DNA of 64,000 bases from a candidate division FCPU426 bacterium (GCA_963719085.1 CAVRAL010000004.1:672001-736000); one strand, 5' to 3'; counted from the first letter of the stretch, positions 28,101 to 62,664 are shown. Notes: generated by a model not told the origin, from the letters alone. Numbers and translations: made by a program.

Positions 28101-28106
28101 AAGGCG

Positions 28107-30611: not shown

Positions 30612-30621
30612 TGTGTGCGTG

Positions 30622-32315: not shown

Positions 32316-32318
32316 CGT

Positions 32319-33491: not shown

Positions 33492-33492
33492 T

Positions 33493-34431: not shown

Positions 34432-34940
34432 CGGGATGGAGCCGTTCGTGTGGACAGGGTAATGAGCCCCATCCCCCGATTGACGATAATTGATCCCGCC
34501 TTGATGGATCCGTTGACCACGCTATTGCAGCCTAGGCTGACCTGTTTCCCAATTTTAGATCCCGGCATGAGGGTCGACCCCGAACCAACAATACTATGGT
34601 CTCCAATAGAAACATTTCCGGTCAATTTTAAATTTTCCCCAAGGGTTTGTTTTGAATAATCGGCGGATTTCGTAAAAACACTGACGTGGGTGGAAAGGCC
34701 TGAATGGGGGCCCATCCGAATGGTCCCGCCCGTGCCGCCTAAAAAACAAAAGGGGGAAATGTGAATGTTCCGCCCCAAAATAACGCGGCCGGTCAAGATA
34801 CTATAAGCGTCAATCCGGGCTCCCGAGCCCAATTCGCCCTTAATTGAGAAAAACCGCGCGTCCCTGGAAACGAGGACGCCTTTCCCAACGAACTTGAAAC
34901 CCAAATCCAAAAGCTCTTCCCTGCTATAAGTATCGAACAT
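34428..34940 (-). CDS. Hexapeptide-repeat (LbH) acyltransferase
   Basis: Y..EEL..LGFK.VG..V..SR.A N-terminus typical of sugar N/O-acyltransferases, followed by hexapeptide repeats. Confidence 0.85.
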   Translation of the reverse strand: MFDTYSREELLDLGFKFVGKGVLVSRDARFFSIKGELGSGARIDAYSILTGRVILGRNIHISPFCFLGGTGGTIRMGPHSGLSTHVSVFTKSADYSKQTLGENLKLTGNVSIGDHSIVGSGSTLMPGSKIGKQVSLGCNSVVNGSIKAGSIIVNRGMGLITLSTRTAPSR

Positions 34941-41400: not shown

Positions 41401-41745
41401 CCGCAGGATTGAGGAACAAAAAGAATGGATGGTGGAAACCGGCGCCTGCTCCAAATCTTTTAAAGCCCGCAAAACCAGTTTTTTTCGCTTCAAGCTTTCC
41501 GCCGGATCGCCTTCGGCCAGCGCTTTTTCCAATTTTTGCCGCAGACGCTCCACCAATTCGCCCGCGGCCTTATCCGTAAAAGTGATGGCCGCCACCCGGG
41601 AAAGGGGAATTTCGGCTTGGAGCAAAACCGCGGCCAGCCGGTCAATCAGAAGGGTGGTTTTCCCCGTGCCCGCTCCCGCGTCCACCGCGAAGGAGGTGCC
41701 CAGTTGTTCCACAATCCGTTGGCGCGCCGCTTGATCGGAGATCAT
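38500..41745 (-). CDS. addA: AddA-type UvrD helicase / RecB-like nuclease
   Basis: AGAGTGKT, TFT.KAA.E, TIHSFC, VDEFQDT, VGDPKQSIYRFR, TLHKAKGLEF, LYV..TRA and a C-terminal D...VDYKTD nuclease; start at MISD coupled to the addB stop. Confidence 0.9.
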   Translation of the reverse strand: MISDQAARQRIVEQLGTSFAVDAGAGTGKTTLLIDRLAAVLLQAEIPLSRVAAITFTDKAAGELVERLRQKLEKALAEGDPAESLKRKKLVLRALKDLEQAPVSTIHSFCSSILREYPIEAGIDPQFKVLDQVQTDAFEAQTWDDWLKNALLNPVESLIFFLNLGGSLSQVERVKNFLLRHRALAARPPVPEEPSAAPLITELKKFARLIPGVLTACKNPEDKFFEQLVYFKKQWEALADSSLSEDRARLSLLELPKPKAGTKGNWDEKVLTKARNEAAQVGEAHQLFAAQVKDRALWRLADWLWAYLGDYAEKKNRQGFLDFDDLLSKTRDLLRMPGELREELKGRFDRIFVDEFQDTDPLQVEVVFFLCEKEGGRAKKWQDVQLEAGKLFLVGDPKQSIYRFRRADIEIYEEAKQKLKASGGQVEDLTQNFRTLEPVVDWVNEKFNVLLSQGGMTYVPQKAHRVLAPHEPNLPPLLKLQLDPFPEEATAAQKRRLEAESVAAFLKETLFPRGFLIEDSKTKAIRPLRPGDVAILFRELSNSETAYEEAFRKRALPYQMVGGKRFFNRPEIAALQTLLSALASPADEASLVALLRSFLFGFTDEELLFYRSEGGQFQYLTPGKKPFQEAFRLLRSLYQDTRDLAPSEVLRLLYDRTSLIPLVAAQPHGEQRVANLLKVVDQARDLETSQNFSAGAFTRWLREQQNEETMEGEAPGPESAGDRITLMTLHKAKGLEFPLVILSGIASQGAREKPPLLNRRQGNFHFKAGEQKLGLQTLGYQAAAEEEEAQEEAEKLRLLYVGCTRARDGLLLPLTDGEEESFLDPLKRGETWKAFAVFETPSESIELQDPSALVVDLNEREKESTEVLESARFFETSRRAFRAKALRPIAGLFQTVTELAHVADEKSSGESWEVTEEQEEPDYSSAGNAKSLGVLTHKLLEKGWDWGAAQMEKAALAWAPREGLDPKQALEAAQLATRALKHPLLQRARQSPTLFKELPLTQKQENGIFIKATMDLVFFEPEGWVIVDYKTDRDPGVQREAYGKQIDLYARLLKKATGFSVKEAGLYFLRQDGPQAWTRIK

Positions 41746-44700: not shown

Positions 44701-45032
44701 GCTTGAAAAACGGACCCTGTCTTAAGCGTTCGGCCGGCGGCTTCCTTTAAAACCCAGGGCGTCAAAACCTCGGGCAAAACTTGCGATCCTTCGGCCAGAA
44801 TTTTTTCCTGGGTGAAGTCCCCTAAGTAATGGTGCAAGGTATGGACTTGGGTATTGAATACGGATTCCTGTTTTTCGGCCAACACCCGTTTTAAATGGCC
44901 GACCAAAAGAACGTTGGGTACCAGAATGAGCAAGGGTCCCAGGGGATCTTGGGCGCGGTGCGCCGCGTAAGCTTGCGCCAGTTTTTCCTCGAGAAAGGGC
45001 TGATAGGGTCCGAGATAAAGGGAAAAACTCAT
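41742..45032 (-). CDS. addB: AddB-type inactive helicase / PD-(D/E)XK nuclease with Fe-S staple
   Basis: SASRLE....CP, GFIDRVD, VDYKTG, LQL..Y, CARCDY..LC. Confidence 0.88.
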   Translation of the reverse strand: MSFSLYLGPYQPFLEEKLAQAYAAHRAQDPLGPLLILVPNVLLVGHLKRVLAEKQESVFNTQVHTLHHYLGDFTQEKILAEGSQVLPEVLTPWVLKEAAGRTLKTGSVFQAVRETPGFYRALRKTLAEIREGLFNSESLKSLAAFGKKTGDRKLRRFSRKAAELAALLESYQGLKAKGQFLDREDLYFKALEVAPAGAGAVFIYGFYDATPLQKKVLLHLAHSPSSRWFVPYEDHPAFEYAKPFVEWAKDLGRVIEEGHFAPETPSPLSRLKNHLFRESSLASENPDIEEPFDVSDFKIFLCPGESREGKEIARGILSQAEAGSLALNEGAVLLRDPESYRKILPQAFEDQKIPLAKPLPGPLLETLEGKALLSLLDCYLRGFPREETLNFLSMPNLVSDAFEVREEDWNPSAWDGISREAKVVEGRVEWRRRLLAWKKNKRREMLREKEEFPAGLEAAESFQKVLESLFKAGDAFRKMKDWSGKAGVLKEMVQKVMKADTEPAASRRKAIVALLENFALFSHFFSKALPVDEFRAVLAALLQETKNPQEPAGPNGVPLYDLMQARGVSFELVALPGLVEKSIPRLVRQDPLLLDIEREEINRQARALQNSALAKAKQGAFNFDAHLPEPSHRMALKKEGALEERLLFLLAVRSARKALILTAPSLNPLTGSPRTPSLYLFEAAEAVTGKRLFRLEEAGGFVKTLPVQDWAKPDLAHCADELERLLTAFQQARFGSPAAALALAKERPFYFEGAKLLKQRQAFPVFTAYDGKISGPAARKILREKDSPRLRAVSASRLETFAACPLRYFYKYVLRLTVIPEPDRVLQLEGADRGQLMHGILEETLERGLKEKWFEKKKVPQAEALSALDEIRDKHFERFTKEGVTGAPALWIWEQGRIKEDLKEVLEKILEDPEWKPVELEAAFGSSTAAKDAGTPVSFPLEGGEIKLQGFIDRVDEARDGSAFRVVDYKTGSDTGFSDQKLKAGTKLQLPFYLWALQQMRPQKPAKTALYDFITRKGKYRQVVYESENPQALQKTLLKVIQPVVESVETGLFPAAGKDCARCDYRSLCGPGAAERGERKAQDPAMRPYYQLEEIE

Positions 45033-49970: not shown

Positions 49971-50008
49971 AAACCCCTTTCGTCCCAAGACGAAAGGGGT
50001 TTATTTTT
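49971..50008. terminator. Hairpin between convergent genes (probable terminator)
   Basis: Perfect 14-bp stem aaacccctttcgtc/gacgaaaggggttt with a ccaa loop, followed by attttt. Confidence 0.8.
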
Positions 50009-51276
50009 TAGTTTTCGGCCAACAACCTTTCCCACATATTTTCGTTCAATAAAATCCGATGAAGAAAATCCTGGTCCCCCGCGGACGGAGGATGGGAAAG
50101 CGGATTGGCCGGAATCCGAAGGGTAAAAATCGTTCCGCGCCCGGGTTCGGGGCCGGTTGAGGCCTCAATTTTTCCGCCGTGGTGATAAACGATGAAAAAG
50201 CAAGTCATCAAGTGAAGCCCGAAATCCTGGGGATTATGGCTGCGGACAAAAAACGGGTCAAAGACCGACTGCAGGGCCTCCGAGGACAATCCGGGACCAT
50301 TGTCGGACAATTGAATCTCGATTTCCGCCGGGCCCTGCGCCGGGCCTACCGCTTTGGCTGAAATTTTAACCTCTCCCCCTTCGGGCAGGTTCGCGGACTC
50401 ATCCTCCAAAAGAAGCTCGAAGAGACGATGAAACTTGGCGCCGTCCACTTTCATGAGGGGCAACTGGGCCGAAACCAAATTCTCGACTTTAATTTTTCGT
50501 TTGGCGAGGGAAGATTCGAGTTTTTTCAAGCTCTCATTCACCACGTCCTGGAGCTTCACTTCATCCGGAAAATCATATTTCGGTTTCTCGGAGGCTTCCC
50601 ATAAATCGCTCAGAAGGAACGCCATCTTGTCCATTTGGCTTTGAACTTTTTTATAATAATCCTTCCAAAAGTCGGGATTACGCAACTGTTCCAAGTCAAT
50701 GTTCTCTTCTTTTAGTTTCTTCGGCGCCAGATCCAAGAATGTCTTCACCGCCACCATGGAGTTGCGGATATGGTGGCTTAAGCCGGTGGCCAAAATCCCC
50801 AAACTTAAAATACGGTCCGTCATCATCGTGTTGTGAAGCACGGACATTTTTTCACGCAATAACTGGTCCCGCTCGTTTTGAACGATGAAAAATTCAATGC
50901 CGCGACGCAGGGTATTCTCCAATTGGGGAATATCCCAAGGTTTGGTCACGTATTTATAGATCGCGCCCGTGTTGACCGCCTCAATGGCAGTTTCCAGGTC
51001 CGAATAGGCGGTCACCAATATCCGCAAGATCCGGGGATTGAGCTGACGGGCTTTTTCCAGAAACTGAATTCCCTTTTCCCCCGGCATACGCTGGTCCGTC
51101 ATCAGGACCGCTGTTTTATCCAAGTTCTCTTTAAGAATCCGAAATCCCTCATCGGCGCTGGGCGCCGTCAGGATGGGAAACTTATCCCCGAAGGTTTGGC
51201 GGAAATATTTGAGGGACTTTTCCTCATCATCCACGTAAAGCACATAATATTTTTTGTAATCGTAAAACGCGTCCAT
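50008..51276 (-). CDS. Receiver + degenerate histidine-kinase protein (PhcQ-like)
   Basis: REC domain (VDDE, TDQRMP, KPW), H-box SHHIRN, DNGPG and FDPF retained; N and G2 boxes degenerate; start MDAF after AAGGAG. Confidence 0.85.
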   Translation of the reverse strand: MDAFYDYKKYYVLYVDDEEKSLKYFRQTFGDKFPILTAPSADEGFRILKENLDKTAVLMTDQRMPGEKGIQFLEKARQLNPRILRILVTAYSDLETAIEAVNTGAIYKYVTKPWDIPQLENTLRRGIEFFIVQNERDQLLREKMSVLHNTMMTDRILSLGILATGLSHHIRNSMVAVKTFLDLAPKKLKEENIDLEQLRNPDFWKDYYKKVQSQMDKMAFLLSDLWEASEKPKYDFPDEVKLQDVVNESLKKLESSLAKRKIKVENLVSAQLPLMKVDGAKFHRLFELLLEDESANLPEGGEVKISAKAVGPAQGPAEIEIQLSDNGPGLSSEALQSVFDPFFVRSHNPQDFGLHLMTCFFIVYHHGGKIEASTGPEPGRGTIFTLRIPANPLSHPPSAGDQDFLHRILLNENMWERLLAEN

Positions 51277-51292
51277 GATCGTCTCCTTCAAG

Positions 51293-53962
51293 CTAGGCTG
51301 TTTTTTCTTCCGCCCGCGCGGGCAAATCGAGCGTAAATTCCGCCCCATTTCCCTTTTCACTTCTGACCGAAATCCGGCCTTCTTGTTCCTGCAAGATCCT
51401 AAAACAAAGGCTCAGCCCCAATCCCATTCCTTGCCCGACGTCTTTGGTGGTAAAAAAAGGATCAAAAATCTTATCCATGACTTGCGGGTCGATCCCCGCC
51501 CCGTTGTCCCGGACTTTAATGAGAACCCGGTTGTTTTCTTCCCGGCTTTCAATGAAAAGCCGGGCTTCATCCTTCTCGAATTTCTTTTCTTTTAAGGCGT
51601 CGCCGGCGTTCTGGATCAAGTTGATGAAAACCTGCACCATTTTATTACTGTCCGCCAGCATGGTTTGTTCTTCCGGAATATTCACTTCCACTTTCACGTG
51701 GTCTTTTAACTCATGGCTTAAAAAACGTAAGGCCGTGTCCACAACCCCCTTCACCTCGATTAAATCCTTGCCCCCCCCCATGTGGGGATGGGTGAACGTC
51801 CGAAGGTCGGTGACGATCCGCTTCACCCTTTGGACACCGTCTTCGATATCGTCCAACACTTCCGTGTAAACCGGGCGTTCGGCTTCGGGCAGTTGGTCTT
51901 TTTTTGTTCTTAGAACATACAGGGCCTGGGCCGCATAGTTAAGCGGATTATTAATTTCATGGATAAGCCCGGCGCTTAAGCGGCCGAGTGAGGCCATTTT
52001 TTCATTTTGAACCAACTGTCCTTCGGTTTCTTTCAATTGTTCGAGTGTCGATTCCAGTGCATTTTTCTCGCGCGCCAAATCACGCTGATAATGGTGGGAT
52101 TCGACCAAATTTTTCACGCGAACGTGCAATTCGGTCGTGGAAAAAGGCTTTGACAAAAAATCGCTGGCTCCCGACTCAAGCGCCCGCATTTTGGTCTCAT
52201 CATCCGCGCGGGCCGTGAGCAAAATAATGGGGATTCCCTGGGTGGAAACCTGATTTTTGAGCTCCCGGCACACTTCAATACCGTCTTTTTCGGGCATCAT
52301 CATGTCGAGCAGGATTAAATCCGGGAGAAATTGACGGGATTTTTCCAAGGCTTGCTGCCCGTCCACGGCTTCAATGACCTCGTATTGTTTTTGAAGTTGG
52401 GTTTTTAAAAATCCCAGCATGTCCGGCTCATCATCGGCGATGAGCAATTTCGGCTTGCGGCCCAAGGCGTAAGAATCCGGCCGCAGGGTATCGGCCAAGG
52501 AGGCCATCGTGGGAAAAAGTTCGGCCCTTCGATAAAGTTTTGACAGCCATTCATCCGGTTCCGGGGCGCTGCCGGCCTGACCGGAGGCCTCCTTTTTAAT
52601 TTCCCGGGTTTCGCCTCCCGCGGCCGGCGCCGGAGCGGCTTCATAGGGCAGTTTCACGCTCATCACCGTGCCCTTTCCACTCTCGCTTTGAACGCTCACT
52701 TCGCCGCCTTGGACCTCGGTGAGTTCTTTGACCAACGCCAATCCGATTCCCGTTCCCTGGTATTTGCGGTTGGACGCAGAGTCCGCCTGCCAAAAACGGT
52801 CAAAAATAAACGGAAGATTTTGCGCGGCAATGCCCATACCCGTATCCCGAACTTGCAAAAGAAGAAATGCCTCCTTCTTCTCGGCCTTTAATTCCACCCG
52901 CCCGCCCGCGGGGGTAAACTTCAAGGCGTTAAAGGTGAGATTGAGCACAATTTTTTCCAGTTTATCCCGGTCCAAAAGAACCGTTTCCACTTCCGGAGCG
53001 ACCGTCGTGGTTAAGGCCACCCGCTTATCCCGGGCCACGGCGGATACGGATTGGGTTAGGCCCCGCAAAAACTCGGCTATCGCTACCGGCTCTTTTTTAA
53101 CTTCCATACGCCCGGATTCCAATTTCACTAAATCCAGTAAGTCATTGATCAATTTCAAAAGCCGCAAAGCGTTGCCATGCATAATCTTCAAGGTTCCCCG
53201 GGTTTCCTCGTCCATCCAATTGGCTTTGAGCTGCTGCAGGCTTTCCAAGGGGGCGATCAAAAGCGTTAAGGGCGTCCGCAGTTCGTGGCTGATATTGGCG
53301 AAAAATTGGCTTTTCATCCGGTCAAGCTCGACAAGTTTGCGGTTGTTTTCTTCCAAGGCTTTTTTGTTTTGATCCAACTCAAACCGCAGAACGAACTCCC
53401 GAATGCGCAGCCGATTCGTGAAATAAGTTCCGATGACCGCGAAAGTCGCGGTGAGAGACAAAAAATAAAGATTATTGAAAAAAATGCCGCCGAAATACTC
53501 GTTTCCGTGGCCCACACAAGCGGCCACGTAAATCATCAGGGTGGCGACACAAACAATTAAGGTTTCCTGGTAAGTCCAGGGAACCAGCAGGCAAAAAGCC
53601 ACCAAAACCACGTTTAAGCCGGCGTAGTAGGGAGACACCGCCCCTTCGGTCGAGTAAATCATCCAGGTGATCGCCCCCAGCGGCAACATGGGTAAAATCA
53701 GGAATAAAAGACGGTCATGCCGCAAACCCCAACGGCTGTAAAAAAGCCCGAAAAGCAATCCCACCAAAGCCGAACACATCAACCGAAGTTCCAAGAAATA
53801 ATGAACCTGCTTGGGATAAACCTGCATATCCAGCGAGATGCCCGCGGGCATGGCGATAATGGCGACCCAGCAGATGATCTTAAACAGGCGCCTTCGCTCG
53901 AGTTTGTTGTAGTCCTCGAACGCCTTTTTAACCTCGGGCTGATGGATCAGATCGTTGCTCAT
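51293..53962 (-). CDS. Membrane hybrid sensor TM-HisKA-HATPase-REC-HisKA-HATPase (PhcS-PhcR fusion-like)
   Basis: 5-6 N-terminal TM helices including PYYAGL; first kinase SHELRTPL...GTGIGL; REC ADDE/LDMMMP/KP; second kinase HEINNPL...GMGLGL. Confidence 0.9.
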   Translation of the reverse strand: MSNDLIHQPEVKKAFEDYNKLERRRLFKIICWVAIIAMPAGISLDMQVYPKQVHYFLELRLMCSALVGLLFGLFYSRWGLRHDRLLFLILPMLPLGAITWMIYSTEGAVSPYYAGLNVVLVAFCLLVPWTYQETLIVCVATLMIYVAACVGHGNEYFGGIFFNNLYFLSLTATFAVIGTYFTNRLRIREFVLRFELDQNKKALEENNRKLVELDRMKSQFFANISHELRTPLTLLIAPLESLQQLKANWMDEETRGTLKIMHGNALRLLKLINDLLDLVKLESGRMEVKKEPVAIAEFLRGLTQSVSAVARDKRVALTTTVAPEVETVLLDRDKLEKIVLNLTFNALKFTPAGGRVELKAEKKEAFLLLQVRDTGMGIAAQNLPFIFDRFWQADSASNRKYQGTGIGLALVKELTEVQGGEVSVQSESGKGTVMSVKLPYEAAPAPAAGGETREIKKEASGQAGSAPEPDEWLSKLYRRAELFPTMASLADTLRPDSYALGRKPKLLIADDEPDMLGFLKTQLQKQYEVIEAVDGQQALEKSRQFLPDLILLDMMMPEKDGIEVCRELKNQVSTQGIPIILLTARADDETKMRALESGASDFLSKPFSTTELHVRVKNLVESHHYQRDLAREKNALESTLEQLKETEGQLVQNEKMASLGRLSAGLIHEINNPLNYAAQALYVLRTKKDQLPEAERPVYTEVLDDIEDGVQRVKRIVTDLRTFTHPHMGGGKDLIEVKGVVDTALRFLSHELKDHVKVEVNIPEEQTMLADSNKMVQVFINLIQNAGDALKEKKFEKDEARLFIESREENNRVLIKVRDNGAGIDPQVMDKIFDPFFTTKDVGQGMGLGLSLCFRILQEQEGRISVRSEKGNGAEFTLDLPARAEEKTA

Positions 53963-55374
53963 TTTGGTTTTCTTATTTCAAGGAAAACATTAATGCCCGT
54001 AACATCCAAATTCACGGTCCAGGAACCCTCCGGAGCCGCTTCGGGTTTGACCAGTTTCATTTGCGCCGCGTCCCGGTAAATCAAATGCCATTCCATAAAA
54101 CTTTCCATGACATTTTGGAAAGGGTTCGAGGGGGTCACATTGGTGGCCAACAAAAGGCCTCCCGGCGCCAATAGACTGTAAAAATAATCCATCAACTTTT
54201 TGCAAATCCGATCCTCCAAATAATCGAACAAACCGGCGCAATAGATAAAATCGTAGGTTTTTTCCGGCGGCCCCGTGACAGGCTTGAAGGATTCTTTCAA
54301 AATGTGGTTGACGGACTTTTTGACCATCTTGATGGGGGTTCTTCGAAGATGGCGCCTTTTTATTTCTTCCAATGTTTTTCCGGTAAACGCCAAAGTCTCG
54401 TCGTTAAAATCCATTAATTCAAACTCGGCCTTGTCGCAAATCTCGTCTTGGATCAGAAAATTTTGAACTTCCTGCGCGGGGCCGCAAGCCATATTTAAAA
54501 ACGAGGCGACCCGTTTTTCCCGGGCGGCCCGCTCCGTTTCCTCGCTCAACTTCCGCACTAAATGCTTGATTCGATTTCGGTGGGCCTCGCAAGGCGGGGC
54601 GTTGACGAACCAAAAGTTGACGATTTTGGCGAACAGCGAACTGCCCTGAAGCGGATCGCCGAGCATCATGTTGACCATCTCATAATCACCGGCGTATCCC
54701 AGTGGCTTTTGAAAACTCCGGTAGACAAAGGGAGAACAAAGGACGATGGGGTGAATCTGCCGCCGGCTGTAGGAGCGGTGGGTGGACCGCACGTCGCTGG
54801 GTAAACTGGAAATGGTTTCCTCGAACCTTTCAAACAAAGAGCCGACGGCCGGGGTAATGGGGTTTTTTAATTCTTGGATCGAATCCCTCTCCATTTGGAT
54901 CCGGTCCCCCGAAGGCTCCGAGCGGATGCTTAATTCCACTTGTTCCAGCCAACGCCTCATGTCCAACAGGAAAGTTTGCATATCGGCGATGACAACCTTT
55001 AACTCATTGGAAATGAGATGGATTTTCTCCCATTCCTTCAAGAATTCGGCGAATTCGTTTTGAAGTTTGTCTTTTTGGTGGATGGAAGTGAAAATATCCA
55101 CATCCAGCCAGTTTTCTTCCAAGGTGCATTCGCAAACCAACAGGATGCCGGTGTTGACTAGATTGCTGACGACCGCCCGACCGGAATAAACCATCCGGTC
55201 ATTCATGATCATTCTAAAATCGGTTAAAACTTCAGATAATTGGAGAATGCTGTAAGGGTTGTAAACCTCAAAAACCACCGTGTAACGCGTGAGCCTGAGC
55301 AAGGTCGCTCGAAATTCCGTGCCTTGGCTGTTACGGCATACAATGAAAGTGTCTTTACCCGTTGAGATCGACAT
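53959..55374 (-). CDS. phcB: PhcB-like SAM-dependent methyltransferase (3-hydroxy fatty acid methyl ester synthase family)
   Basis: KPLGYAGDYEM, AHRNR, SAM motif ACGPAQE, DFIYCAGLFDYL, EWHLIYR; 471 aa; ATGA-coupled to a sensor kinase as in Ralstonia phcBSR. Confidence 0.8.
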   Translation of the reverse strand: MSISTGKDTFIVCRNSQGTEFRATLLRLTRYTVVFEVYNPYSILQLSEVLTDFRMIMNDRMVYSGRAVVSNLVNTGILLVCECTLEENWLDVDIFTSIHQKDKLQNEFAEFLKEWEKIHLISNELKVVIADMQTFLLDMRRWLEQVELSIRSEPSGDRIQMERDSIQELKNPITPAVGSLFERFEETISSLPSDVRSTHRSYSRRQIHPIVLCSPFVYRSFQKPLGYAGDYEMVNMMLGDPLQGSSLFAKIVNFWFVNAPPCEAHRNRIKHLVRKLSEETERAAREKRVASFLNMACGPAQEVQNFLIQDEICDKAEFELMDFNDETLAFTGKTLEEIKRRHLRRTPIKMVKKSVNHILKESFKPVTGPPEKTYDFIYCAGLFDYLEDRICKKLMDYFYSLLAPGGLLLATNVTPSNPFQNVMESFMEWHLIYRDAAQMKLVKPEAAPEGSWTVNLDVTGINVFLEIRKPK

Positions 55375-55442
55375 GGATCCCTTTCCCCAAGGCTTAAAAT
55401 CGACTTATCTTACACGACTCTTAAAAAAAAAATCCCGAAGGC

Positions 55443-56990
55443 TCAGTTCCCCTTGAAAACCCGCAGCAAGGTTCCCAACCCATGTTGCGCGCTCACTCCC
55501 AATAGACCGCCCATCATGGCGCCGGCGATCCCCAATCCCCCCACATCCGCCCCCACCAAGGACAAACCCTTCAAGGGAGTCTTGGCTTTAAGGCTTTTAA
55601 GCCCGTATCGGCGGGGGGTTCCGGGATAACCATAAATGGCCCCTTTTCGGTGGCTGGTGAAATGTTCCACCGAAAGCGGAGTGGACAATTCGGCGAAAGC
55701 GATTTGGGCTCGAAAACCGGGAATACGGCTTTCCACAAAATCCAAAAGGGTTTCGGTGATTTTTTCCTTCAACCTTTGGTATTCGGGCCCCCGCCCCATC
55801 CACTTTTTCCCGCTCCAATCCTGAAAAACGGAATAATCCAGGGGCGCGATAATTTCCGCGGTCGGTCTCATCGCGGCCGGATCCTTCAGCCCCGGAAAAG
55901 AAAGATAACAAGACGAAGCCGTTCCCTGGGCCAATTGGTTTCGGTTTTCCCAAATAACATCGTGGTCAAAGCTGTTATAAATCCAAAAATTTTGACCGTG
56001 GATGCCCAAATGCTCACAACGGGATTTTAGCCCCAGATAAAGGGTCACAACGCCATAGGGAGAAACGGAGGAGATTTCCCTCATTTCATCCTCGTCGATC
56101 AACCCCGGCGGCAAAAGTTCTCCGTAAGTGGCTTGCGCTCCCGCGTCCGAATAGATCTCGGAGGCCTTTACCGTTCGGGGCCCCCGGGAATCTTCCAGCT
56201 CCACCCCGATGGCTTTTGTTCCTTCCATCAAAATCCGCCGTACCCGGCTTCTGACTTTCAGCTCGCCGCCGGCCTCTTGAACCACCTTGGCGATGGCCAA
56301 GCCTAAAGAGGCGCCCGAACCCACCGGATAATAACCCCCTTCGAGATAATGATGGGCGATGACCGCGTGGGTCCCCAGACTCGCCGATTGCGGAGGCAAA
56401 CCGTAGTCCCCCCATTGGGAGGCCACCACGCCTTTCAATCGTTGATCTTGAAACCGGTGATCCAGGTATTTCTTTAAAGGTTGAAGGGCCATTTCCCGGC
56501 ATCGTTGAAAATAATCTTTCTGTCTTTGGCTGCGGCCCGGTCCGGCGAACTGGCCCGGAAGATGGCGCGTCACTAAATCCAAATCACGGAAATAACGCCG
56601 AAGATTCGCTTTCTCCGCCGGAAAAACGCCGGCGAGTTTTTTTAAATAAGCTTCCCGGCCCGAGGGAACCTCAAATTTAAAACCCGGGTAGAGGAATGTT
56701 TCAAAAGGATCTTTCATTTGGACCCAATCGACGCCGCCGCCGGTAATGAAATCCATGGCCCGCCTTAAGGGATTGTTGAGATTCATCTCGCCGACATAAT
56801 GCAATCCCACGTCCCAATGGTAGCCGCCGGGACGTTGGAAGGTATGCGTAAAACCTCCCAGCTTGAAATGCTGTTCAAGCACTAAAACCCGGTAGCCTTT
56901 TATCCGGGCGAGAGCGGCGGCGGCCGCCAATCCGCCGATGCCCGAACCAATAACGATCGCGTCGTAGGAGTCCTCTTTTTCCATCGTCAC
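55443..56990 (-). CDS. FAD-dependent oxidoreductase, phytoene desaturase / retinol saturase family
   Basis: IGSGIGGL, LEQH...GG.TH.F, WDVGLHYVG, GG.YP.G, STPLS..HF.....GAIYG. Confidence 0.88.
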   Translation of the reverse strand: MTMEKEDSYDAIVIGSGIGGLAAAAALARIKGYRVLVLEQHFKLGGFTHTFQRPGGYHWDVGLHYVGEMNLNNPLRRAMDFITGGGVDWVQMKDPFETFLYPGFKFEVPSGREAYLKKLAGVFPAEKANLRRYFRDLDLVTRHLPGQFAGPGRSQRQKDYFQRCREMALQPLKKYLDHRFQDQRLKGVVASQWGDYGLPPQSASLGTHAVIAHHYLEGGYYPVGSGASLGLAIAKVVQEAGGELKVRSRVRRILMEGTKAIGVELEDSRGPRTVKASEIYSDAGAQATYGELLPPGLIDEDEMREISSVSPYGVVTLYLGLKSRCEHLGIHGQNFWIYNSFDHDVIWENRNQLAQGTASSCYLSFPGLKDPAAMRPTAEIIAPLDYSVFQDWSGKKWMGRGPEYQRLKEKITETLLDFVESRIPGFRAQIAFAELSTPLSVEHFTSHRKGAIYGYPGTPRRYGLKSLKAKTPLKGLSLVGADVGGLGIAGAMMGGLLGVSAQHGLGTLLRVFKGN

Positions 56991-57763
56991 CCGGCAGCCG
57001 CCGGCAAGGGGCTTAAATCCCGGGCACGATCATGACTCCTCGAATTCGAAAAAGAGATCAAGGATTCCGGATCCCAATCGTAAATTTGATATTGGCCGGG
57101 CGCGTCATTCTTATTTTTCGTGACCTGGGCCAAACAATAAACACCGCCTTCCAATGTCCGGGTGAAATATTCCCAGCCGCCCGATGAGGCGCGCTCGGGC
57201 GGGGGTAAAGGAACCGTAAATCCACTTAAAGAAAAACAAAGACCTTGCCCAAGGGCTTTGACCATCGCCTCTTTCATGGTGAATAACTGGAAAAAAAGGG
57301 GCCCTTGGGACTCAAGCGGTTGAGAACGAAGAAAGTCGATCTCCCGCGGGGAAAAATAGCGCTCGGCCAACCGCCGGCCCCGCTGAAAGGCTTCGGGGCT
57401 TAAATCAACTTTTTCAACATCAATACCCACTTCACACCAAGAAAATGAACAGGCGATCAATCCTTGGGTATGGGATAAATTAAACCGCAATCGGGTTTTC
57501 TCAAGAACCGGCTTTCCGCCTTCTTGAAAACCAAATCGGATCCGATGGGGGTCGCTTTTTAAGTAAAAGGCGGCGAGCTGCCGCAGGAGCAGACGGGACC
57601 ATAAATATTCCCGGCGCCGGCTTTCCAAGCCGAAATCGCCCATTCGCGACTGTTCGTCTTCCGATAAAAAAGAGGGACGATCGAGAACTGTTTCCTTTAT
57701 CCGAAACAGGTGGATATGAACCGCTTGGGGTTCCAAGGGGGCCGTTTCCCGTTCCAGTGTCAT
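56987..57763 (-). CDS. 4'-phosphopantetheinyl transferase (Sfp type)
   Basis: LS.DE..R, GKP, FNLSH, GIDVE, FT.KEA..KA.G.G; start placed at MTLE (57796 is the alternative). Confidence 0.9.
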   Translation of the reverse strand: MTLERETAPLEPQAVHIHLFRIKETVLDRPSFLSEDEQSRMGDFGLESRRREYLWSRLLLRQLAAFYLKSDPHRIRFGFQEGGKPVLEKTRLRFNLSHTQGLIACSFSWCEVGIDVEKVDLSPEAFQRGRRLAERYFSPREIDFLRSQPLESQGPLFFQLFTMKEAMVKALGQGLCFSLSGFTVPLPPPERASSGGWEYFTRTLEGGVYCLAQVTKNKNDAPGQYQIYDWDPESLISFSNSRSHDRARDLSPLPAAAG

Positions 57764-57779
57764 AAATCCTTCCTTGATT

Positions 57780-58499
57780 TCAACCCATTCCCCCATCCAA
57801 AACGATCACGCTGCCAGTGAGATAATCCGGGGAGGACTCCGCCAGGAAAAAAACTATCTTGGAAACTTCTTCCACCTCGCAAAACCGGCGCAAGGGAACG
57901 GTTTGAAGAATGGCTTCCTTCGCCTGGGGTGATAACTTTTCAATCATGGGAGTGACAACTCCCCCCGGCGCCACCACATTGGCGATGACGCCGTAAGGCC
58001 CCGCTTCTTTGGCTAAGGCCTTGGTAAATCCGATAATGCCGGCTTTGGAAGCCGAATAATTGGCTTGGCCGGGAAGGCCGTGAATCCCGGAGATCGACGA
58101 GAGATTGATGACCCTCCCCTTTTTCTTTTTCAACATGTCGAAAACAAACCTGCGGGTGAGGTAAAAAACGCCGAAAAGATTCGTGTACAGCACATCCGTC
58201 CAATCCGAATCTTGCATGGAAAACAAAGGTTTGTCCCGGGTGATGCCGGCGTTGTTGACCAAAACGTCCACGCTTCCTTCTTCTTGAAGCACGGCCTTGC
58301 AAAATTGGTCGCAGGCTTCCCGATCCGCCACATCCAGGGCGTGGGCCTTTATTTTCCCCGCGAAACGGTTTTCCATTTCCCGCGCGGAGGCCTCATTGGA
58401 ATGAAAGGTAAAATGGACCTTCCATCCGGCGCCGGCGAATGTTTCAACCAAATTTTTGCCGATCCCCGAGGAGCCGCCCGAAATCACGATTTTTTTCAT
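57780..58499 (-). CDS. fabG: 3-oxoacyl-ACP reductase (FabG-like SDR)
   Basis: GGSSGIG, VNNAGITRD, SS, GQANYSASK, N.VAPG; ATGA-coupled to the dehydratase. Confidence 0.9.
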   Translation of the reverse strand: MKKIVISGGSSGIGKNLVETFAGAGWKVHFTFHSNEASAREMENRFAGKIKAHALDVADREACDQFCKAVLQEEGSVDVLVNNAGITRDKPLFSMQDSDWTDVLYTNLFGVFYLTRRFVFDMLKKKKGRVINLSSISGIHGLPGQANYSASKAGIIGFTKALAKEAGPYGVIANVVAPGGVVTPMIEKLSPQAKEAILQTVPLRRFCEVEEVSKIVFFLAESSPDYLTGSVIVLDGGMG

Positions 58500-58948
58500 G
58501 GCGTTTTCAGCTTCCCGAATAAAAATTTCCCGGTTGCCACCACTTCGCCGTTCACCGTTCCTCTTCCCTCGATGATCCGGTTCGATCCGACGGCTTTGGT
58601 AATGGTCATATGAATCTCCAGTTGATCTCCCGGAACCAGGGGTTTCATAAATCGAAAGTCCGTCACCGCCCCGATCACGTCCACCACTCCCGGAAGCTCC
58701 CCTTCCTCGGTGATCCGGATCAAAATAGCCGCGGTTTGGGCGAAACATTCAATGGTGAGAACCCCCGGGAAAATCGGATTCCCGGGAAAATGACCGGGAA
58801 AATAGATTTCATTGACCGAGATATTTTTAATCGCCCGTAAGTCTTTTCCTTTTTCGAACGAAAGAACCCGATCCACCATCAAGACGGGAAAGCGTTGTTT
58901 TAAAAAAGATAGAACCGGAATTGGGCCCGATTCGTTTTCATTTGGCAC
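58496..58948 (-). CDS. fabZ: 3-hydroxyacyl-ACP dehydratase (FabZ-like)
   Basis: QRFP.LMVD, F.GHFPG.PI.PGVL.IE..AQ (catalytic His/Glu), F..P..PGD.L. Confidence 0.9.
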   Translation of the reverse strand: MPNENESGPIPVLSFLKQRFPVLMVDRVLSFEKGKDLRAIKNISVNEIYFPGHFPGNPIFPGVLTIECFAQTAAILIRITEEGELPGVVDVIGAVTDFRFMKPLVPGDQLEIHMTITKAVGSNRIIEGRGTVNGEVVATGKFLFGKLKTP

Positions 58949-59186
58949 GAAGCTGCTCTTCGATCATTTTGGCGGAGGAGTCAACCGTGGACATCTGGAC
59001 CAGTTGATCCGGGTCAATCGTGAGATTAAACTCGTTTTCCAATTTGGATAAAAACTCAAGGGCCCGCATGGAATCGTATTTCGCCATTTCGGTGAAGGAT
59101 TTGGACCCCGAAATATCCTCCGGCTGAAGGTCGAACATGCCGGCGATAATTCCCTTTATTTTCGATTGAATTTCAGTTAATTGCAT
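58938..59186 (-). CDS. Acyl carrier protein
   Basis: 82-aa acidic protein with a DSM site and LE.EF; AAGGAG RBS. Confidence 0.9.
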   Translation of the reverse strand: MQLTEIQSKIKGIIAGMFDLQPEDISGSKSFTEMAKYDSMRALEFLSKLENEFNLTIDPDQLVQMSTVDSSAKMIEEQLRAK

Positions 59187-59197
59187 TTTTTCTCCTT

Positions 59198-60097
59198 TTA
59201 TTTTTTGATTTTGATAAAAGATATTTTCCGTTCCGTTTTTGAGACGGCGGCGACCACTCCGCAAGAATAAGCGCTCGATAAAAAGTGATCCAACGAATCC
59301 GACCCGCCCAATCCCAGTTCTAAAACGGCGGGATTGGGTGAATGGCGGATCAGGCCTCTTGGAAAGCCGGATTCAAGAAAATGCTCTTCCGGAGCGCCCA
59401 ACCATTGCACGCCATTCCATAAAAGCTCAAACCGTTTTTGAAAACCGAGGGGTAGGCTTAAATCCCCCTTCAATTGCAGTGTGAAATAATCCACGACTTC
59501 AAATGAAGCGCCTTGGCTTGCGTCGCCGGAAGCTAATAAAAAGGTCGCGCCTTCCTTAAAAATCATCGCCGAATCGGGCGGCGCCGCCATGGATTTTAGA
59601 AAAGCCGGCGCCTTTTCCACCGCGCCCGCCAAACAAGTTTGAAAAAGCCCGCTGTTATAACCTTCCCAGGCAAAGCCAATGGCGTCCACGAACGAGGTGC
59701 TCCCATTAGTCAGGGTCACGTTCGGGCCTTTTAACTGAAACCATATTCCAATCCGGCTTCCGGCCGCGTTGGCCACGGTGTTGGGGAAATCCATGGGATT
59801 AACCGTATTCGGGCCGTTTAAAAGGGCTTGCGAGTCGAAATCCACCACGCTTTCCATCGAGGCAAAAGCGCTTCCGGCGATCACGGCGAAATTCCGGCGG
59901 GCGGCCTCTTCCAATCCCGCCGCCATTCCATTTAAAGCCCGTGCGGCGGCGATTCCCGCCAACAAGGACAAAGCGTCAATATATTTTGGGGAAACATCAG
60001 GAAAAGATTTTTGAAATTCGGCGGGCAAAGTCTCGATGGTTAACCCATTATTTCCCAGAAACGCGTTGCCTTGGCGGTGAATGATGAGCGGTTTCAA
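59198..60097 (-). CDS. Non-catalytic ketosynthase-like protein (chain-length-factor-like)
   Basis: TTG start overlapping the KS stop with GGAGG upstream. KS N-domain motif NPMDFPNTVANAAG...LKGPN.T; the catalytic Cys site reads TNGSTS; C-domain short, lacking the KS His motifs. Confidence 0.82.
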   Translation of the reverse strand: MKPLIIHRQGNAFLGNNGLTIETLPAEFQKSFPDVSPKYIDALSLLAGIAAARALNGMAAGLEEAARRNFAVIAGSAFASMESVVDFDSQALLNGPNTVNPMDFPNTVANAAGSRIGIWFQLKGPNVTLTNGSTSFVDAIGFAWEGYNSGLFQTCLAGAVEKAPAFLKSMAAPPDSAMIFKEGATFLLASGDASQGASFEVVDYFTLQLKGDLSLPLGFQKRFELLWNGVQWLGAPEEHFLESGFPRGLIRHSPNPAVLELGLGGSDSLDHFLSSAYSCGVVAAVSKTERKISFIKIKK

Positions 60098-61314
60098 GAA
60101 GCGGCCTCCCGCTTCAATAAAACCAAACACGACGTATTCCCCCCAAAAGCGAAAGAATTCGAAAGGGCGACTTTTCCCTGAAAGGCACGGGATTGATTGG
60201 GCACACAGTCGGACACACAATTTTCATCCTGAATTTCCCAATTCATGGTCGGTAATAATCGGCCGCGATCCAAAGATAAACAAGTCATGACCGCTTCGAT
60301 GGCGCTGGCGGCTCCCATGGTATGGCCGATCATGGACTTGATGGAGTTCACGGGAATTTTACAATCGGTCCCGAATACTTTTTTAATGGCGAAAGATTCA
60401 GTTTTATCGTTCGCCGGGGTTCCGGTGCCGTGGGCCGAGATAAAATCAATTTTTTCGGGCGCGAGTTGAGCCTGAGCCAAAGCCTTGAGGATGCTTTCGT
60501 AAGCGCCGACTCCCTCGGGATGGGGCGAGGTCATATGAAAGGCGTCCATGCCCAATCCATAACCGCCAATTTCACAATAAATGTGCGCGCCGCGGGCCTT
60601 CGCCGTTTCTAAGTTTTCAAGCAAGAGAACTCCCACCCCCTCGCTTACCACCAATCCTTTTCGGTTGGCGGAAAAGGGCCGGCATTTATCCGGCGTCAGG
60701 GAAAGAAGGCGGTTGAATCCGGTAAAGGCCACGCGGGAAAAAACATCCACTCCCCCGCAAATGGCTAAGTCTAAATTGCCCTGGCGGATTTGCTCAAATC
60801 CCCAGCCAATCGCGTAATTGCCGGAAGCGCAGGCGTTGGAAAAAACCATGGCTTGTCCGCCCACGCCCAAAAAATCAAGGACGGAAAAAGCGATCCGGGA
60901 ACTTTGGACTTTATCAAAGCTATCCGGTTTTATTTCGGCTTGGCGGTTTTTGACATTGAATTCGGACATGCGTTCAGCCAATTGGACTTCGCCCATCGTG
61001 GTTCCAAAATAACTGCCGACCCGAAGGGAATCGATCTGCGCAGCGGTGAGCCCGGCGTCTCGGAGCGCTTCTTGCGTGGCCAGGATGGAGAAAGCCGCGG
61101 CGCCTTCATAGCGGCCCGGGTTTTCTTTTTCAAAAAGATCCAAACGTTGCCGCTGTTTAATTTCACCGCCCACCTTTACTCGATAAGGCGCCGGATCCAA
61201 GGATTGAAGCGGCTCAATCCCGATATCACCGCGAACCATGGCTTCCCAGCTCGTCGCCACGTCTTCCCCCAGAGGACAAATCACGCCGAGGCCTGTGACA
61301 GCGACTTTTTTCAT
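60094..61314 (-). CDS. Beta-ketoacyl-ACP synthase (FabF-like KS)
   Basis: VAVTGLG, catalytic triad SNACASG / AHGTGT / GHTMGA, SNSFAFGG; AAGGAG RBS. Confidence 0.93.
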   Translation of the reverse strand: MKKVAVTGLGVICPLGEDVATSWEAMVRGDIGIEPLQSLDPAPYRVKVGGEIKQRQRLDLFEKENPGRYEGAAAFSILATQEALRDAGLTAAQIDSLRVGSYFGTTMGEVQLAERMSEFNVKNRQAEIKPDSFDKVQSSRIAFSVLDFLGVGGQAMVFSNACASGNYAIGWGFEQIRQGNLDLAICGGVDVFSRVAFTGFNRLLSLTPDKCRPFSANRKGLVVSEGVGVLLLENLETAKARGAHIYCEIGGYGLGMDAFHMTSPHPEGVGAYESILKALAQAQLAPEKIDFISAHGTGTPANDKTESFAIKKVFGTDCKIPVNSIKSMIGHTMGAASAIEAVMTCLSLDRGRLLPTMNWEIQDENCVSDCVPNQSRAFQGKVALSNSFAFGGNTSCLVLLKREAAS

Positions 61315-61583
61315 CCCGGGCTCCTTGCCAAACGCTTGAATCATTCGGGCCAAATTCGCTGATAATTTTCGCGATCAGTCAAAATTAGTTTCACGCTCAT
61401 CTTGCTTTCCCCGTCGGCTTTTAGCGCCATGACTCTTTCGTTGTTTTTCTGTCACTTTTAAGCGGGTTCGAAGTCCACGCCGCAGGTTTGTCTTCTAGAA
61501 ATGATAACTTGGTTTTCTTTTAAATTACAAAAAAAGGTTGAAATGGGTATTTTTTACACAGAAGTTGTTTATCGCTATTTTTT

Positions 61584-61642
61584 TGTCAAAACTTGACTAA
61601 AAAATTGATAAAACAATTTTAATTTTGCATGTTTACTGTCAA
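61584..61642 (-). promoter_or_regulatory. AT-rich candidate promoter/operator for the KS-phc operon
   Basis: Minus-strand TTGACA at 61637-61642 and 61584-61589; palindromes GTCAA-N3-TTGAC (61585-61597) and AAAATTG-N6-CAATTTT (61601-61620). Confidence 0.4.
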
Positions 61643-61644
61643 AA

Positions 61645-62664
61645 CTAGAAAAGAGAAAGTTGGTCGGTTGAGGAAACCGGTTTCATTTTTTTCCGCCCGA
61701 TTTTTAGGCCCGGGGCTCCAAAAACCATGGGAGCCGCGGACTGAACCACCGAAGGCTGCGCGGGCCCTTCGCTTTCAACAAGAACCGGCGCAAGAATGGG
61801 AATCTCGGAGACGATTGGCGTCGATGAAGCCTCAACTTTTTTGCCTTTGCTTTCCAAATAAGCTTTTCCGCCGGCGCACACCGAAAGATACTCGCACCAC
61901 CCGCAAAGACGGCTGGGCTTGACCGGAAAGGCCTTCGCCTTCTCAATTTCCTGGATTTTGGAGACGTATTTTTTTTTCAACCACTCCACTTCTTTGGCGT
62001 TGCGCTCGCTGACCACCAAGTCCTTGTCAAAAGCCACAAAATGCCAAGCCAGCTTCACCTTGGCGCTGGAGCCGATCTTCGGGTTCTGGGAAAGCCCGAT
62101 CTGGTAAAGCGCCAATTGATCCTCGTACTTGGCGTCTTCCTCGCTCATTCGGCGGGAGCTGGTTTTATAGTCGTGGATCCAAAAGGTCCCCTCGCTGTCT
62201 TTTCCCAATCGATCGATGAAGCCCTGCATTTTATATCGGCCGTCCGGGTCCAAATTAAAAAGCACCTTCATCTCAATGCCTTGGGTTTGATCTTGGTCAA
62301 ACGGCTGATATTTATGGTAATAATTTTCAACAAAAAGCTGGCCCTTCTCGTAATAGTCTTCCAGGGTCTGGCCTTCGTGCACAATCCGGATGGGCGTGGG
62401 AAAGCCGCGATCCCGCTGTTTTTTCAGGGCTTCCTGCCATTTATGTTCCCAATGGTTTTTAAAATAATTCAACAGCTCGTTGACGGTGGGAACGCGCTCG
62501 GGAATTTGTTGATAAAGATATTCCATGCACTCATGGAAACGGGATCCCAAAAAAAGCTCAATGCCTTCCGCCACCGGCGGCGGTGTTTTATGGATATAGC
62601 GGAACTCAAATTGGGCGGGGCAGGTGAAGTAGGTATTGACGCGGGAGTAAGAATAAATCGTCAT
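61645..62664 (-). CDS. Stand-alone RecB-family PD-(D/E)XK nuclease with Fe-S cysteines
   Basis: SYSR...Y..CP, G..FH, GFIDRL, IHDYKT, QL.LY, CGWCEY..VC; low-complexity tail ending QLSLF. Confidence 0.88.
   Translation of the reverse strand: MTIYSYSRVNTYFTCPAQFEFRYIHKTPPPVAEGIELFLGSRFHECMEYLYQQIPERVPTVNELLNYFKNHWEHKWQEALKKQRDRGFPTPIRIVHEGQTLEDYYEKGQLFVENYYHKYQPFDQDQTQGIEMKVLFNLDPDGRYKMQGFIDRLGKDSEGTFWIHDYKTSSRRMSEEDAKYEDQLALYQIGLSQNPKIGSSAKVKLAWHFVAFDKDLVVSERNAKEVEWLKKKYVSKIQEIEKAKAFPVKPSRLCGWCEYLSVCAGGKAYLESKGKKVEASSTPIVSEIPILAPVLVESEGPAQPSVVQSAAPMVFGAPGLKIGRKKMKPVSSTDQLSLF

Follow-up and report, generated by a model that had tools for sequence, protein, structure and literature searches.

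A Phc-type signalling module with an upstream KS/CLF synthase in a candidate division FCPU426 bacterium

The stretch of DNA considered here, called the window, comprises 64,000 nucleotides (nt) of a candidate division FCPU426 bacterium (GCA_963719085.1 CAVRAL010000004.1:672001-736000). Positions 50008-61314 hold a block of ten genes, in which a polyketide-type synthase built around a ketosynthase (KS) and a chain length factor (CLF) precedes a trio of signalling genes that resemble the Phc quorum-sensing system of Ralstonia. The locus is a composite of a Phc-type signalling module and an upstream synthase, and the module part is well supported. The best reading of the composite, held tentatively and at a little under even likelihood, is that the synthase supplies a custom acyl chain for a methyl-ester signal.

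The ten-gene block

Gene identities were taken from Pfam and NCBIfam scans and from the translations. All ten genes are intact and lie head to tail on the minus strand, running from 61314 to 50008 in the order proposed by the initial annotation and with the domains it had named in each. Neighbouring genes overlap by 4-17 nt or are separated by 11-16 nt, and the sole exception is 68 nt before the methyltransferase gene, in agreement with the tight junctions described earlier. The strong hairpin said to close the run also stands. At 49971-50002, a two-way terminator hairpin with a 14-bp stem folds as RNA at -37.8 kcal/mol (z = -3.93), and none of 200 shuffles folds as well.

The first gene (60094-61314, minus strand) encodes a FabF-like but divergent KS with the N- and C-terminal ketoacyl-synt domains of Pfam. 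Its translation displays the catalytic Cys in NACASG and both His motifs, its score against the NCBIfam fabF models falls under the cut-offs (368.7 vs 493.75), and its top solved relative is PDB 9s5h_B (356 bits, residues 2-401). The second gene (59198-60097, minus strand) begins with TTG, overlaps the KS stop by 4 nt, and encodes a CLF-like KS partner of 299 amino acids (aa), which matches only the N-terminal KS domain in Pfam and has Phe in place of the catalytic Cys. The top solved relative of the partner, 9s5h_C, comes from the same PDB entry as the KS match, and a GPN-VNPMDFPNTV stretch is common to both proteins. When a structure model of the partner (mean predicted local distance difference test, pLDDT, 82.6) was compared with solved folds, the AntDE second subunit came out closest, ahead of FabF and then the ishigamide KS/CLF. 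An intact KS, a Cys-less partner encoded by a gene overlapping it by 4 nt, and a dedicated acyl carrier protein (ACP) form the hallmark of KS/CLF type II polyketide synthases (PKSs). By their sequences, the two proteins are a KS/CLF pair and are predicted to form a heterodimer.

The private ACP gene (58938-59186, minus strand) follows the CLF gene after an 11-nt gap; its product has a Pfam PP-binding domain and a DSM serine motif, and scores under the cut-offs of the NCBIfam ACP models. It overlaps by 11 nt a gene for a FabZ-type 3-hydroxyacyl-ACP dehydratase (58496-58948, minus strand; Pfam FabA-like; NF000582, 127.4 bits, over the cut-off of 113), which in turn overlaps by 4 nt that for a FabG-type 3-oxoacyl-ACP reductase (57780-58499, minus strand; adh_short and KR domains, YSASK motif; NF009466, 232.3 bits, over the cut-off of 222). 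An Sfp/HetI-type phosphopantetheinyl transferase (PPTase) is encoded at 56987-57796, or from a start at 57763, on the minus strand, giving a 17-nt overlap or a 16-nt gap. It matches Pfam ACPS and AASDHPPT_N and exceeds the cut-off of the TIGR00556 domain model (47.4 vs 45.35 bits). The last gene of the synthase part (55443-56990, minus strand) overlaps the PPTase gene by 4 nt and encodes a flavin adenine dinucleotide (FAD) oxidoreductase of the phytoene desaturase/carotenoid isomerase/retinol saturase (CrtI/RetSat) family, with Pfam NAD_binding_8 and Amino_oxidase domains. The crtI_fam, carotenoid isomerase and CrtD models of NCBIfam are all matched under their cut-offs, PDB matches include gamma-carotene desaturase and phytoene dehydrogenase, and the atlas clusters that match (score 0.99) bear the names phytoene desaturase and all-trans-retinol 13,14-reductase. 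The families nearest to this flavoenzyme desaturate, isomerise or saturate polyene chains.

Among the ten block proteins, Pfam and NCBIfam returned no match to thioesterase, acyltransferase or enoyl reductase families, nor to the FabD/FabH family. The absence of a thioesterase from the cluster had been pointed out before and is borne out. The label of type II fatty acid synthase (FAS) given to these genes is better replaced by that of a KS/CLF polyketide-type set, as enoyl reductase and FabD/FabH are missing and the KS and ACP score under the FabF and ACP cut-offs; the enzymes of a full type II FAS elongation cycle are not all present, though FabZ and FabG pass their cut-offs. In systems of this kind, ketoreduction and dehydration without enoyl reduction leave double bonds in the chain. 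Because no enoyl reductase is present, the acyl chain is probably unsaturated or polyene-like. The flavoaffinin cluster, reached through the KS/CLF polyene literature for 9s5h, was set aside as a counterpart, since the available part of the preprint describes a different cluster.

The signalling trio begins with a PhcB-type S-adenosylmethionine (SAM) methyltransferase of 471 aa (53959-55374, minus strand), separated from the flavoenzyme gene by the 68-nt gap. Relatives at E <= 0.001 make up 5780 of 8000 scored candidates, and those that one source has named are listed as 'extracellular factor (EF) 3-hydroxypalmitic acid methyl ester biosynthesis protein'. In an index-free search, the representative clusters numbered 4540 at E <= 0.001 and 581 at E <= 1e-30, mostly matching end to end. 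When plasmids were searched, full-length coverage occurred in one of 143 matching records, that of Paraburkholderia graminis, whose 468-aa methyltransferase is 39% identical over 469 aligned residues. On this plasmid (pPHS1_P), the methyltransferase belongs to a phc-like operon with a kinase of 445 aa and regulators of 134 and 344 aa. The model of the window protein (pLDDT 89.2, predicted template modelling score 0.87) consists of a beta-barrel (residues 9-85), helices (102-285) and a Rossmann fold (290-470). Among solved folds, the uncharacterised Bordetella protein 3ocj matches it best, over the helices and the Rossmann domain, ahead of small-molecule methyltransferases. A PilZ identity for the N-terminal barrel proved a weak lead, with no Pfam match even at E = 1; atlas scores for the barrel were 0.85 and 0.84, and PilZ appeared on 21% of one cluster. 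By sequence, the enzyme belongs to the PhcB kind, as had been proposed, on the strength of the source name and of the full-length identity to the Paraburkholderia protein; the comparator is a Burkholderiaceae phc-like operon and not the Ralstonia protein.

The next gene (51293-53962, minus strand) overlaps the methyltransferase stop by 4 nt (ATGA) and encodes a membrane hybrid sensor kinase of 889 aa. Its Pfam domain order is HisKA-HATPase-REC-HisKA-HATPase, so that two kinase cores surround a receiver (REC); the membrane hybrid kinase had been recognised earlier, and the two cores are an addition. Five or six hydrophobic segments occupy residues 25-154. The membrane domain (residues 19-190) aligns with residues 11-186 of the Paraburkholderia PhcS-like kinase, and the second core is 37% identical to the core of that kinase. 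For the membrane domains of both kinases, MASE8 matches are only sub-threshold. The best NCBIfam match of the hybrid kinase is the LvrA model NF047465 (residues 193-881), at 325.8 bits and under the cut-off of 1200.

The last gene (50008-51276, minus strand) follows after 16 nt and encodes a Rec-controlled histidine kinase of 422 aa with Response_reg, HisKA and HATPase_c domains, that is, a receiver, a dimerisation and histidine phosphotransfer domain and a catalytic domain (REC-DHp-CA). In the translation, the phospho-acceptor Asp stands in TDQRMPG and the phospho-acceptor His in SHHIRNS. Its receiver shares 38% identity with the 344-aa Paraburkholderia regulator, and PDB matches include LvrB (E 4.6e-11). 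In the available part of one report, PhcR is the prototypical Rec-controlled kinase (Rec-HK), and phosphorylation of the LvrB receiver frees the catalytic domain (PMC13269768). The match to PhcR is one of architecture, namely the build of receiver plus kinase as far as its description goes (PMC8578825), and in this form the REC-kinase proposed as last gene is confirmed. The PhcQ-like component proposed with it falls away: the block ends at 50008, and no PhcQ-type receiver-only regulator of 336-337 aa, the size given in that description, lies between the Rec-kinase gene and the terminator.

Distribution of the trio and its link to the synthase

A profile built from 50 family members was scanned over one genome per species and returned at least 595 stretches, of which at least 592 are confirmed relatives. 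The locus counts that follow refer to the best 80 of these at least 592 relatives, nearly all labelled Verrucomicrobiota, in which the ten window proteins were located by tblastn. A kinase membrane domain directly follows the methyltransferase in 79 of the 80 loci. Where the downstream sequence reaches far enough, 61 of 67 loci have the long hybrid kinase and six a shorter or split one, and 64 of 66 have the Rec-kinase. These counts make the trio a conserved, widespread and self-standing cassette, and the three downstream genes of the block can be assigned to this large Phc-like family with high confidence. In the loci designated L058, L065, L066 and L074 (also L069 and L077), the shorter or split kinase has the membrane domain and one core, and the Rec-kinase comes next, at a distance of about 2.8-3.0 kb from the start of the methyltransferase; this build is closer to the simple PhcS.

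The region upstream of the methyltransferase was surveyed with Pfam on 97 upstream open reading frames (ORFs) from 63 loci and then with a FadL profile built from 26 matches. In 43 of the 80 loci, a gene for a FadL/TodX outer-membrane channel is found no more than 700 nt upstream of the methyltransferase, co-oriented in 22 and divergent in 21; among the remainder, 29 have other genes and seven too little upstream sequence. L065 and L074 have a FabA-like dehydratase as the immediate upstream neighbour of the methyltransferase, and L021 and L044 a short-chain dehydrogenase upstream of FadL. One clade (Opitutaceae, Chthoniobacterales and others) has an extra co-oriented REC-plus-kinase gene, found with Pfam, directly upstream of the methyltransferase and in the place of FadL (L051:8761-9903, L053:7687-8814, L056:8892-9974, L062:8763-9908 and L073:8840-9937). 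Prosthecobacter-like loci have a LuxR-type response regulator (receiver and GerE) just upstream of FadL (L011:5936-6583, L013:7869-8516 and L022:7824-8567), a candidate DNA-binding output of the cassette that the window does not have.

The synthase genes accompany the trio within one clade. The closest relative locus, L002, has a methyltransferase 79% identical to that of the window and repeats the gene order KS, partner, ACP, FabZ, FabG, PPTase, flavoenzyme, methyltransferase and start of the kinase. The upstream flanks differ, with a divergent REC-PAS kinase gene in L002 and a PD-(D/E)XK nuclease gene in the window. In a quick tree of 82 methyltransferases rooted on Paraburkholderia, the two loci group together with a support of 100 in the Shimodaira-Hasegawa-like approximate likelihood ratio test (SH-aLRT). 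Seven other rows (L026, L061, L064, L045, L030, L029 and L040) are labelled Akkermansia muciniphila, Bifidobacteriaceae, Blastochloridaceae, Limnocylindria or Binatia and yet nest among Verrucomicrobiota rows, L026 beside a Brevifollis row; these oddly labelled loci may be mis-binned contigs or cases of gene transfer.

A search with the CLF-like protein yielded 91 proteins. Sixty-five clusters (P0271-P0335, the window's own included) match at 51-100% identity and E <= 2.3e-54, and nothing follows them until E 1.5e-8, a gap that indicates that the synthase is not seen apart from this clade. Twenty CLF clusters and 20 methyltransferase clusters could be paired by exactly equal size of the longest contig, matched by eye; four of these contigs measure only 5.8-8.8 kb. 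The pairs, methyltransferase first and with the shared contig in nt, are P0002 and P0311 (36517), P0003 and P0295 (85414), P0004 and P0285 (6585), P0005 and P0297 (779338), P0008 and P0287 (23572), P0009 and P0283 (19341), P0010 and P0308 (30878), P0012 and P0281 (8778), P0015 and P0326 (97046), P0019 and P0299 (5812), P0021 and P0300 (842592), P0022 and P0316 (14181), P0024 and P0319 (198836), P0025 and P0331 (6714), P0027 and P0303 (23003), P0028 and P0306 (25444), P0032 and P0282 (20287), P0035 and P0321 (24060), P0038 and P0294 (205927), and P0045 and P0298 (485784). They reach down to 64% methyltransferase and 52% CLF identity. For contigs of at least 14 kb, a CLF cluster of equal contig size was found for 15 of 20 listed methyltransferase matches with at least 66% identity and for one of 20 with at most 65%. 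The method agrees with a locus that can be read directly: the contig of L005 (18,207 nt) equals in size that of P0115, for which no CLF pair was noted, and in L005 the place upstream is taken by FadL rather than a synthase.

Between the synthase genes and the trio, the 68-nt gap (55375-55442, minus strand) contains a run of ten T and forms no hairpin of any stability (z = +1.40; of 200 shuffles, 188 equal or surpass its fold). The matching gap of L002 is 108 nt long, unlike in sequence and also unstructured (z = -0.18). The lack of a terminator-like fold in the 68-nt gap means that read-through from the synthase genes is possible, though a separate promoter may also be present.

Proposed role of the synthase

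According to the mechanism proposed here, the methyltransferase would make a fatty-acid methyl ester, and the multi-pass membrane domain of the hybrid kinase would sense it. Phosphate would then pass by way of the receiver and second core of the hybrid kinase to the Rec-kinase and from there to a partner whose gene lies outside the block. Across the family, the Phc-type module would normally draw on primary fatty-acid synthesis, usually with a FadL-type channel adjoining. In the clade of the window, the KS/CLF synthase, with its own ACP and PPTase, would build a non-standard acyl chain on the private ACP, and the CrtI/RetSat-type flavoenzyme may edit that chain. The last 3-hydroxyacyl or acyl intermediate would be handed to the methyltransferase, giving a clade-specific methyl-ester signal.

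Features of the sequences that argue for such a supply of the acyl chain are the clade-wide linkage, the restricted range of the CLF, the lack of a release enzyme and the lack of a terminator between the two gene sets. Lipid-tailoring genes at the same spot in other lineages point in the same direction, as does the view, expressed in the available part of one publication, that PhcB acts on 3-hydroxyacyl-ACP (PMC4549310).

Several observations weigh against this role. KS, CLF and ACP genes lie upstream in only one of the 55 loci with at least 6.2 kb of upstream sequence, and that one is L002. With the synthase at one of 55 loci and FadL commonly adjoining, the trio does not need a private synthase, and across the family the module works without one. 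In the quick tree, the clade of the window and L002 has just these two rows and sits inside a group of FadL-linked clades. The pairing of methyltransferase and CLF clusters is indirect, being drawn from equal contig sizes rather than from gene order, and a close relative, whose RF3 (83% identical) sits on a contig of 240,205 nt, lacks the link: methyltransferase P0057 (64%) has that same contig size and no CLF match does. When 22 synthase-linked rows were compared with 79 others, only two methyltransferase positions were group-specific, 139 (M for L) and 387 (E for S), the latter directly after the invariant YCAGLFDYL motif. Judged from these alignments, the core of the enzyme is nearly unchanged in the synthase-linked rows, with no sign of a re-shaped pocket. 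Release from the ACP is a further difficulty. No block gene accounts for cleavage of the thioester, to our knowledge a SAM methyltransferase cannot cleave one, and fold comparison found no hydrolase-like domain in the methyltransferase model.

The conserved linkage fits a regulatory tie equally well, and a link that is regulatory only is the main rival explanation, although we regard it as rather unlikely. The trio would then use an acyl chain from primary fatty-acid synthesis, and the KS/CLF cluster would make a separate product, such as a polyene lipid or a pigment, under the control of the module or co-expressed with it. Quorum-sensing genes are often embedded in biosynthetic clusters, and signalling genes placed beside the clusters that they control would equally produce clade-wide linkage. 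The self-sufficiency of the module, seen in the rarity of the synthase among the 55 loci, and the almost unchanged methyltransferase core speak for a regulatory link. It accounts less well for a cluster without a release or transfer enzyme of its own, in which the methyltransferase is the only tailoring enzyme left, or for the continuity of the block, where no terminator parts the synthase genes from the trio. The FadL gene usually found upstream of the methyltransferase is nowhere in the window, and the CLF type was not found outside the clade; both speak against a purely regulatory link.

An explanation of another kind, which we consider improbable, is that the trio senses or handles fatty acids from outside or from membranes: FadL would import them, the methyltransferase would esterify them and the kinases would report lipid status, with the synthase as a lipid-remodelling add-on. 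FadL-type channels are importers of hydrophobic compounds, and it is such channels that adjoin the methyltransferase in 43 of 80 loci. The block encodes no DNA-binding output, and the literature search found no signal shown for any member outside Ralstonia. What tells against lipid sensing is the coupling of a synthase-like enzyme, at the level of translation, to a multi-pass sensor kinase. This is the pattern of Ralstonia, where, according to the available part of one report, the ester is a diffusible signal and PhcB and PhcS co-vary with signal type (PMC7694676).

The least probable account, chance neighbourhood with no functional tie between the gene sets, can point to the 68-nt gap as the only sizeable one in the block, to the dissimilar gap sequences of the window and L002 and to an uninformative promoter scan, but it is hard to reconcile with a gene order kept in L002 despite a different upstream flank, with 20 exact contig-size pairs down to 64% methyltransferase and 52% CLF identity, with a single strand and no terminator between synthase and trio, and with a similarly low GC content at third codon positions (GC3) of 0.53-0.63 in both parts.

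Supply of the acyl chain by the synthase remains our preferred reading, and it modifies what the initial annotation had proposed, a dedicated type II FAS wired to a Phc-like circuit. The Phc-type trio and a clade-restricted link to the synthase hold up; a family-wide link, PhcQ and the term FAS do not. Likewise, the expected conservation of FAS and phcB synteny is found within one clade (L002 and the 20 pairs) and is not found across the family (one of 55 loci). A broader proposal can be ventured with less assurance. Phc-type lipid-ester signalling may be a large undescribed family of Verrucomicrobiota and unplaced relatives, usually FadL-gated and found in at least 592 species-level genomes, in which one clade captured a KS/CLF synthase to make an orthogonal signal, an unsaturated or polyene 3-hydroxy methyl ester. 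No earlier autoinducer sensed by a kinase would then have been assembled on a carrier protein of its own.

Should the trio act in signalling as it does in Ralstonia, the quorum-sensing type of one plant-pathogen group becomes a common language of abundant, hard-to-culture soil and freshwater bacteria, for which the methyltransferase, the multi-pass kinase and the Rec-kinase, often with FadL, would be a ready marker. The synthase-linked clade would be a natural experiment on the privatising of a signal channel, in which the acyl supply changes and the synthase and receptor are kept. How PhcB-type enzymes take up their substrate from an acyl carrier is a question for which the locus offers a defined carrier. 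Even if the link is regulatory only, the locus would still be a small, tractable polyketide cluster under the control of a lipid signal.

Surroundings of the block and comparison with known systems

Upstream of the KS gene lies an AT-rich non-coding stretch of about 330 nt (61315-61644, minus strand), likely the promoter and control region of the block. Two exact minus-strand copies of AGTTTTGACA occur 53 nt apart in the non-coding DNA upstream of KS (61584-61593 and 61637-61646), and a third lies within the hybrid kinase gene, giving three in the window against 0.10 expected. L002 has about 600 nt of non-coding DNA upstream of its KS, and AGTTTTGACA was not found there. An Rfam scan of the window found no riboswitch upstream of the block, a tRNA being the only RNA family match, and a simple scan of the region for promoter and terminator consensus sequences gave no excess over shuffles (8 vs 9.0 and 26 vs 24.2). 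The ten block genes have somewhat low GC3 values, alike in the synthase and signalling parts, compared with 0.654 +/- 0.045 for 26 other window genes; these values lie inside the spread of the window, and composition was discarded as a sign of gene transfer. The gene upstream of the block (61645-62664) encodes a PD-(D/E)XK nuclease or Cas4-like protein, the third PD-(D/E)XK gene besides the AddA/AddB-like pair described below.

Pfam on the window ORFs and the FadL profile revealed no FadL-like ORF in the 64 kb, and Pfam revealed no DNA-binding output gene in the block. No LysR-type domain was found among 51 window ORFs scanned. In Ralstonia, the phcA-type LysR gene is unlinked to the phc operon, so its absence from 64 kb says little.

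Elsewhere in the window, genes for a squalene/phytoene synthase and for a second flavoenzyme of the amine-oxidase type are near neighbours on the plus strand (23847-24716 and 25330-26934) and look like a separate squalene/carotenoid pair. Genes on the minus strand at 26970-34940 encode a DegT-type aminotransferase, a methyltransferase, an aldehyde dehydrogenase, an AMP-binding enzyme, a radical SAM protein, a family-2 glycosyltransferase and a hexapeptide transferase, and look like a cluster for the modification of sugars or lipids. A helicase-nuclease pair of the AddA/AddB kind (UvrD helicase and PD-(D/E)XK; 1109 and 1096 aa) is encoded at 38500-45032 (minus strand), a stand-alone PilZ protein at 2229-2603 (minus strand), a membrane adenylate/guanylate cyclase with dCache and HAMP at 8674-10509 (minus strand), and tRNA-Val with anticodon CAC at 23389-23465 (minus strand).

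A literature search limited to the main texts of openly available papers found no description of the Phc-like family beyond Burkholderiales, and none of the Verrucomicrobiota cassette of FadL, methyltransferase and kinases. For PhcB together with a ketosynthase and acyl carrier protein gene cluster, the search found nothing beyond a general review.

The trio shares with the Phc system of Ralstonia a methyltransferase of about 470 aa in first place, a membrane sensor kinase directly behind it and then a protein with REC and kinase domains. The likeness rests on published descriptions and sizes, the Paraburkholderia operon being the sequence comparator. In the available part of the source, PhcB has 464-468 aa, compared with 471 aa for the window enzyme, PhcR has 368-374 aa with receiver and kinase, and PhcQ has 336-337 aa and a receiver only (PMC8578825). 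Unlike PhcS of Ralstonia, the window kinase is a hybrid with a receiver and a second core. The window also differs in having neither a PhcQ-type gene nor a visible PhcA-type LysR gene, in the private KS/CLF synthase upstream, and in its uncultured host. RF3 relatives with 73-98% identity carry no finer label than 'bacterium', and matches at about 70% come next, to proteins of Nitrospira, Planctomycetota and chlamydiae, so that the lineage is unplaced in these records; L002 is labelled 'uncultured bacterium'.

In the Paraburkholderia operon (L001), the methyltransferase, kinase membrane domain, kinase core and receiver are homologous to the window trio, whereas the kinase is of a simple build (445 aa), with two regulators (134 and 344 aa) behind it. 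That operon resides on a conjugative plasmid and has no synthase genes within 12 kb. A co-oriented gene of the cyclopropane-fatty-acyl-phospholipid synthase family (L001:9934-10956) lies about 1 kb upstream of it. The Verrucomicrobiota cassette of FadL, methyltransferase, hybrid kinase and Rec-kinase (L003-L081) shows the trio order and overlaps of the window, with the methyltransferase 48-62% identical, most kinases 39-57% and most Rec-kinases 31-61%, but has a FadL channel or other genes upstream in place of a synthase. The Leptospira LvrA/LvrB system resembles the trio in its two-step kinase chain ending in a REC-DHp-CA kinase, as far as the available part of its description shows (PMC13269768). 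The Lvr family scores of the window kinases are far under the cut-offs (325.8 vs 1200 and 56.5 vs 500).

Among other signalling systems, CqsA/CqsS and LqsA/LqsS use a hydrophobic alpha-hydroxyketone signal that derives from acyl carriers and has a multi-pass membrane kinase as its sensor. In DarABC/PauR and PpyS/PluR of Photorhabdus, the signals come from ketosynthase-type enzymes, and the receptors are LuxR solos rather than kinases. The Cqs, Lqs, Dar and Ppy synthases are not known to be related to the PhcB type.

On the synthase side, the block resembles AntDE of Photorhabdus, Iga11/12 of ishigamide synthesis and the KS pair of 9s5h in combining a catalytic KS with a Cys-less partner, and these type II PKS pairs also share with it an ACP, a ketoreductase and a dehydratase without an enoyl reductase. 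The partner is shorter in the block, at 299 aa compared with 347-412 in systems of the AntDE, ishigamide and 9s5h type. The block differs further from type II PKS systems in being without cyclase, aromatase, adenylating enzyme and thioesterase, and in having signalling genes attached to its synthase.

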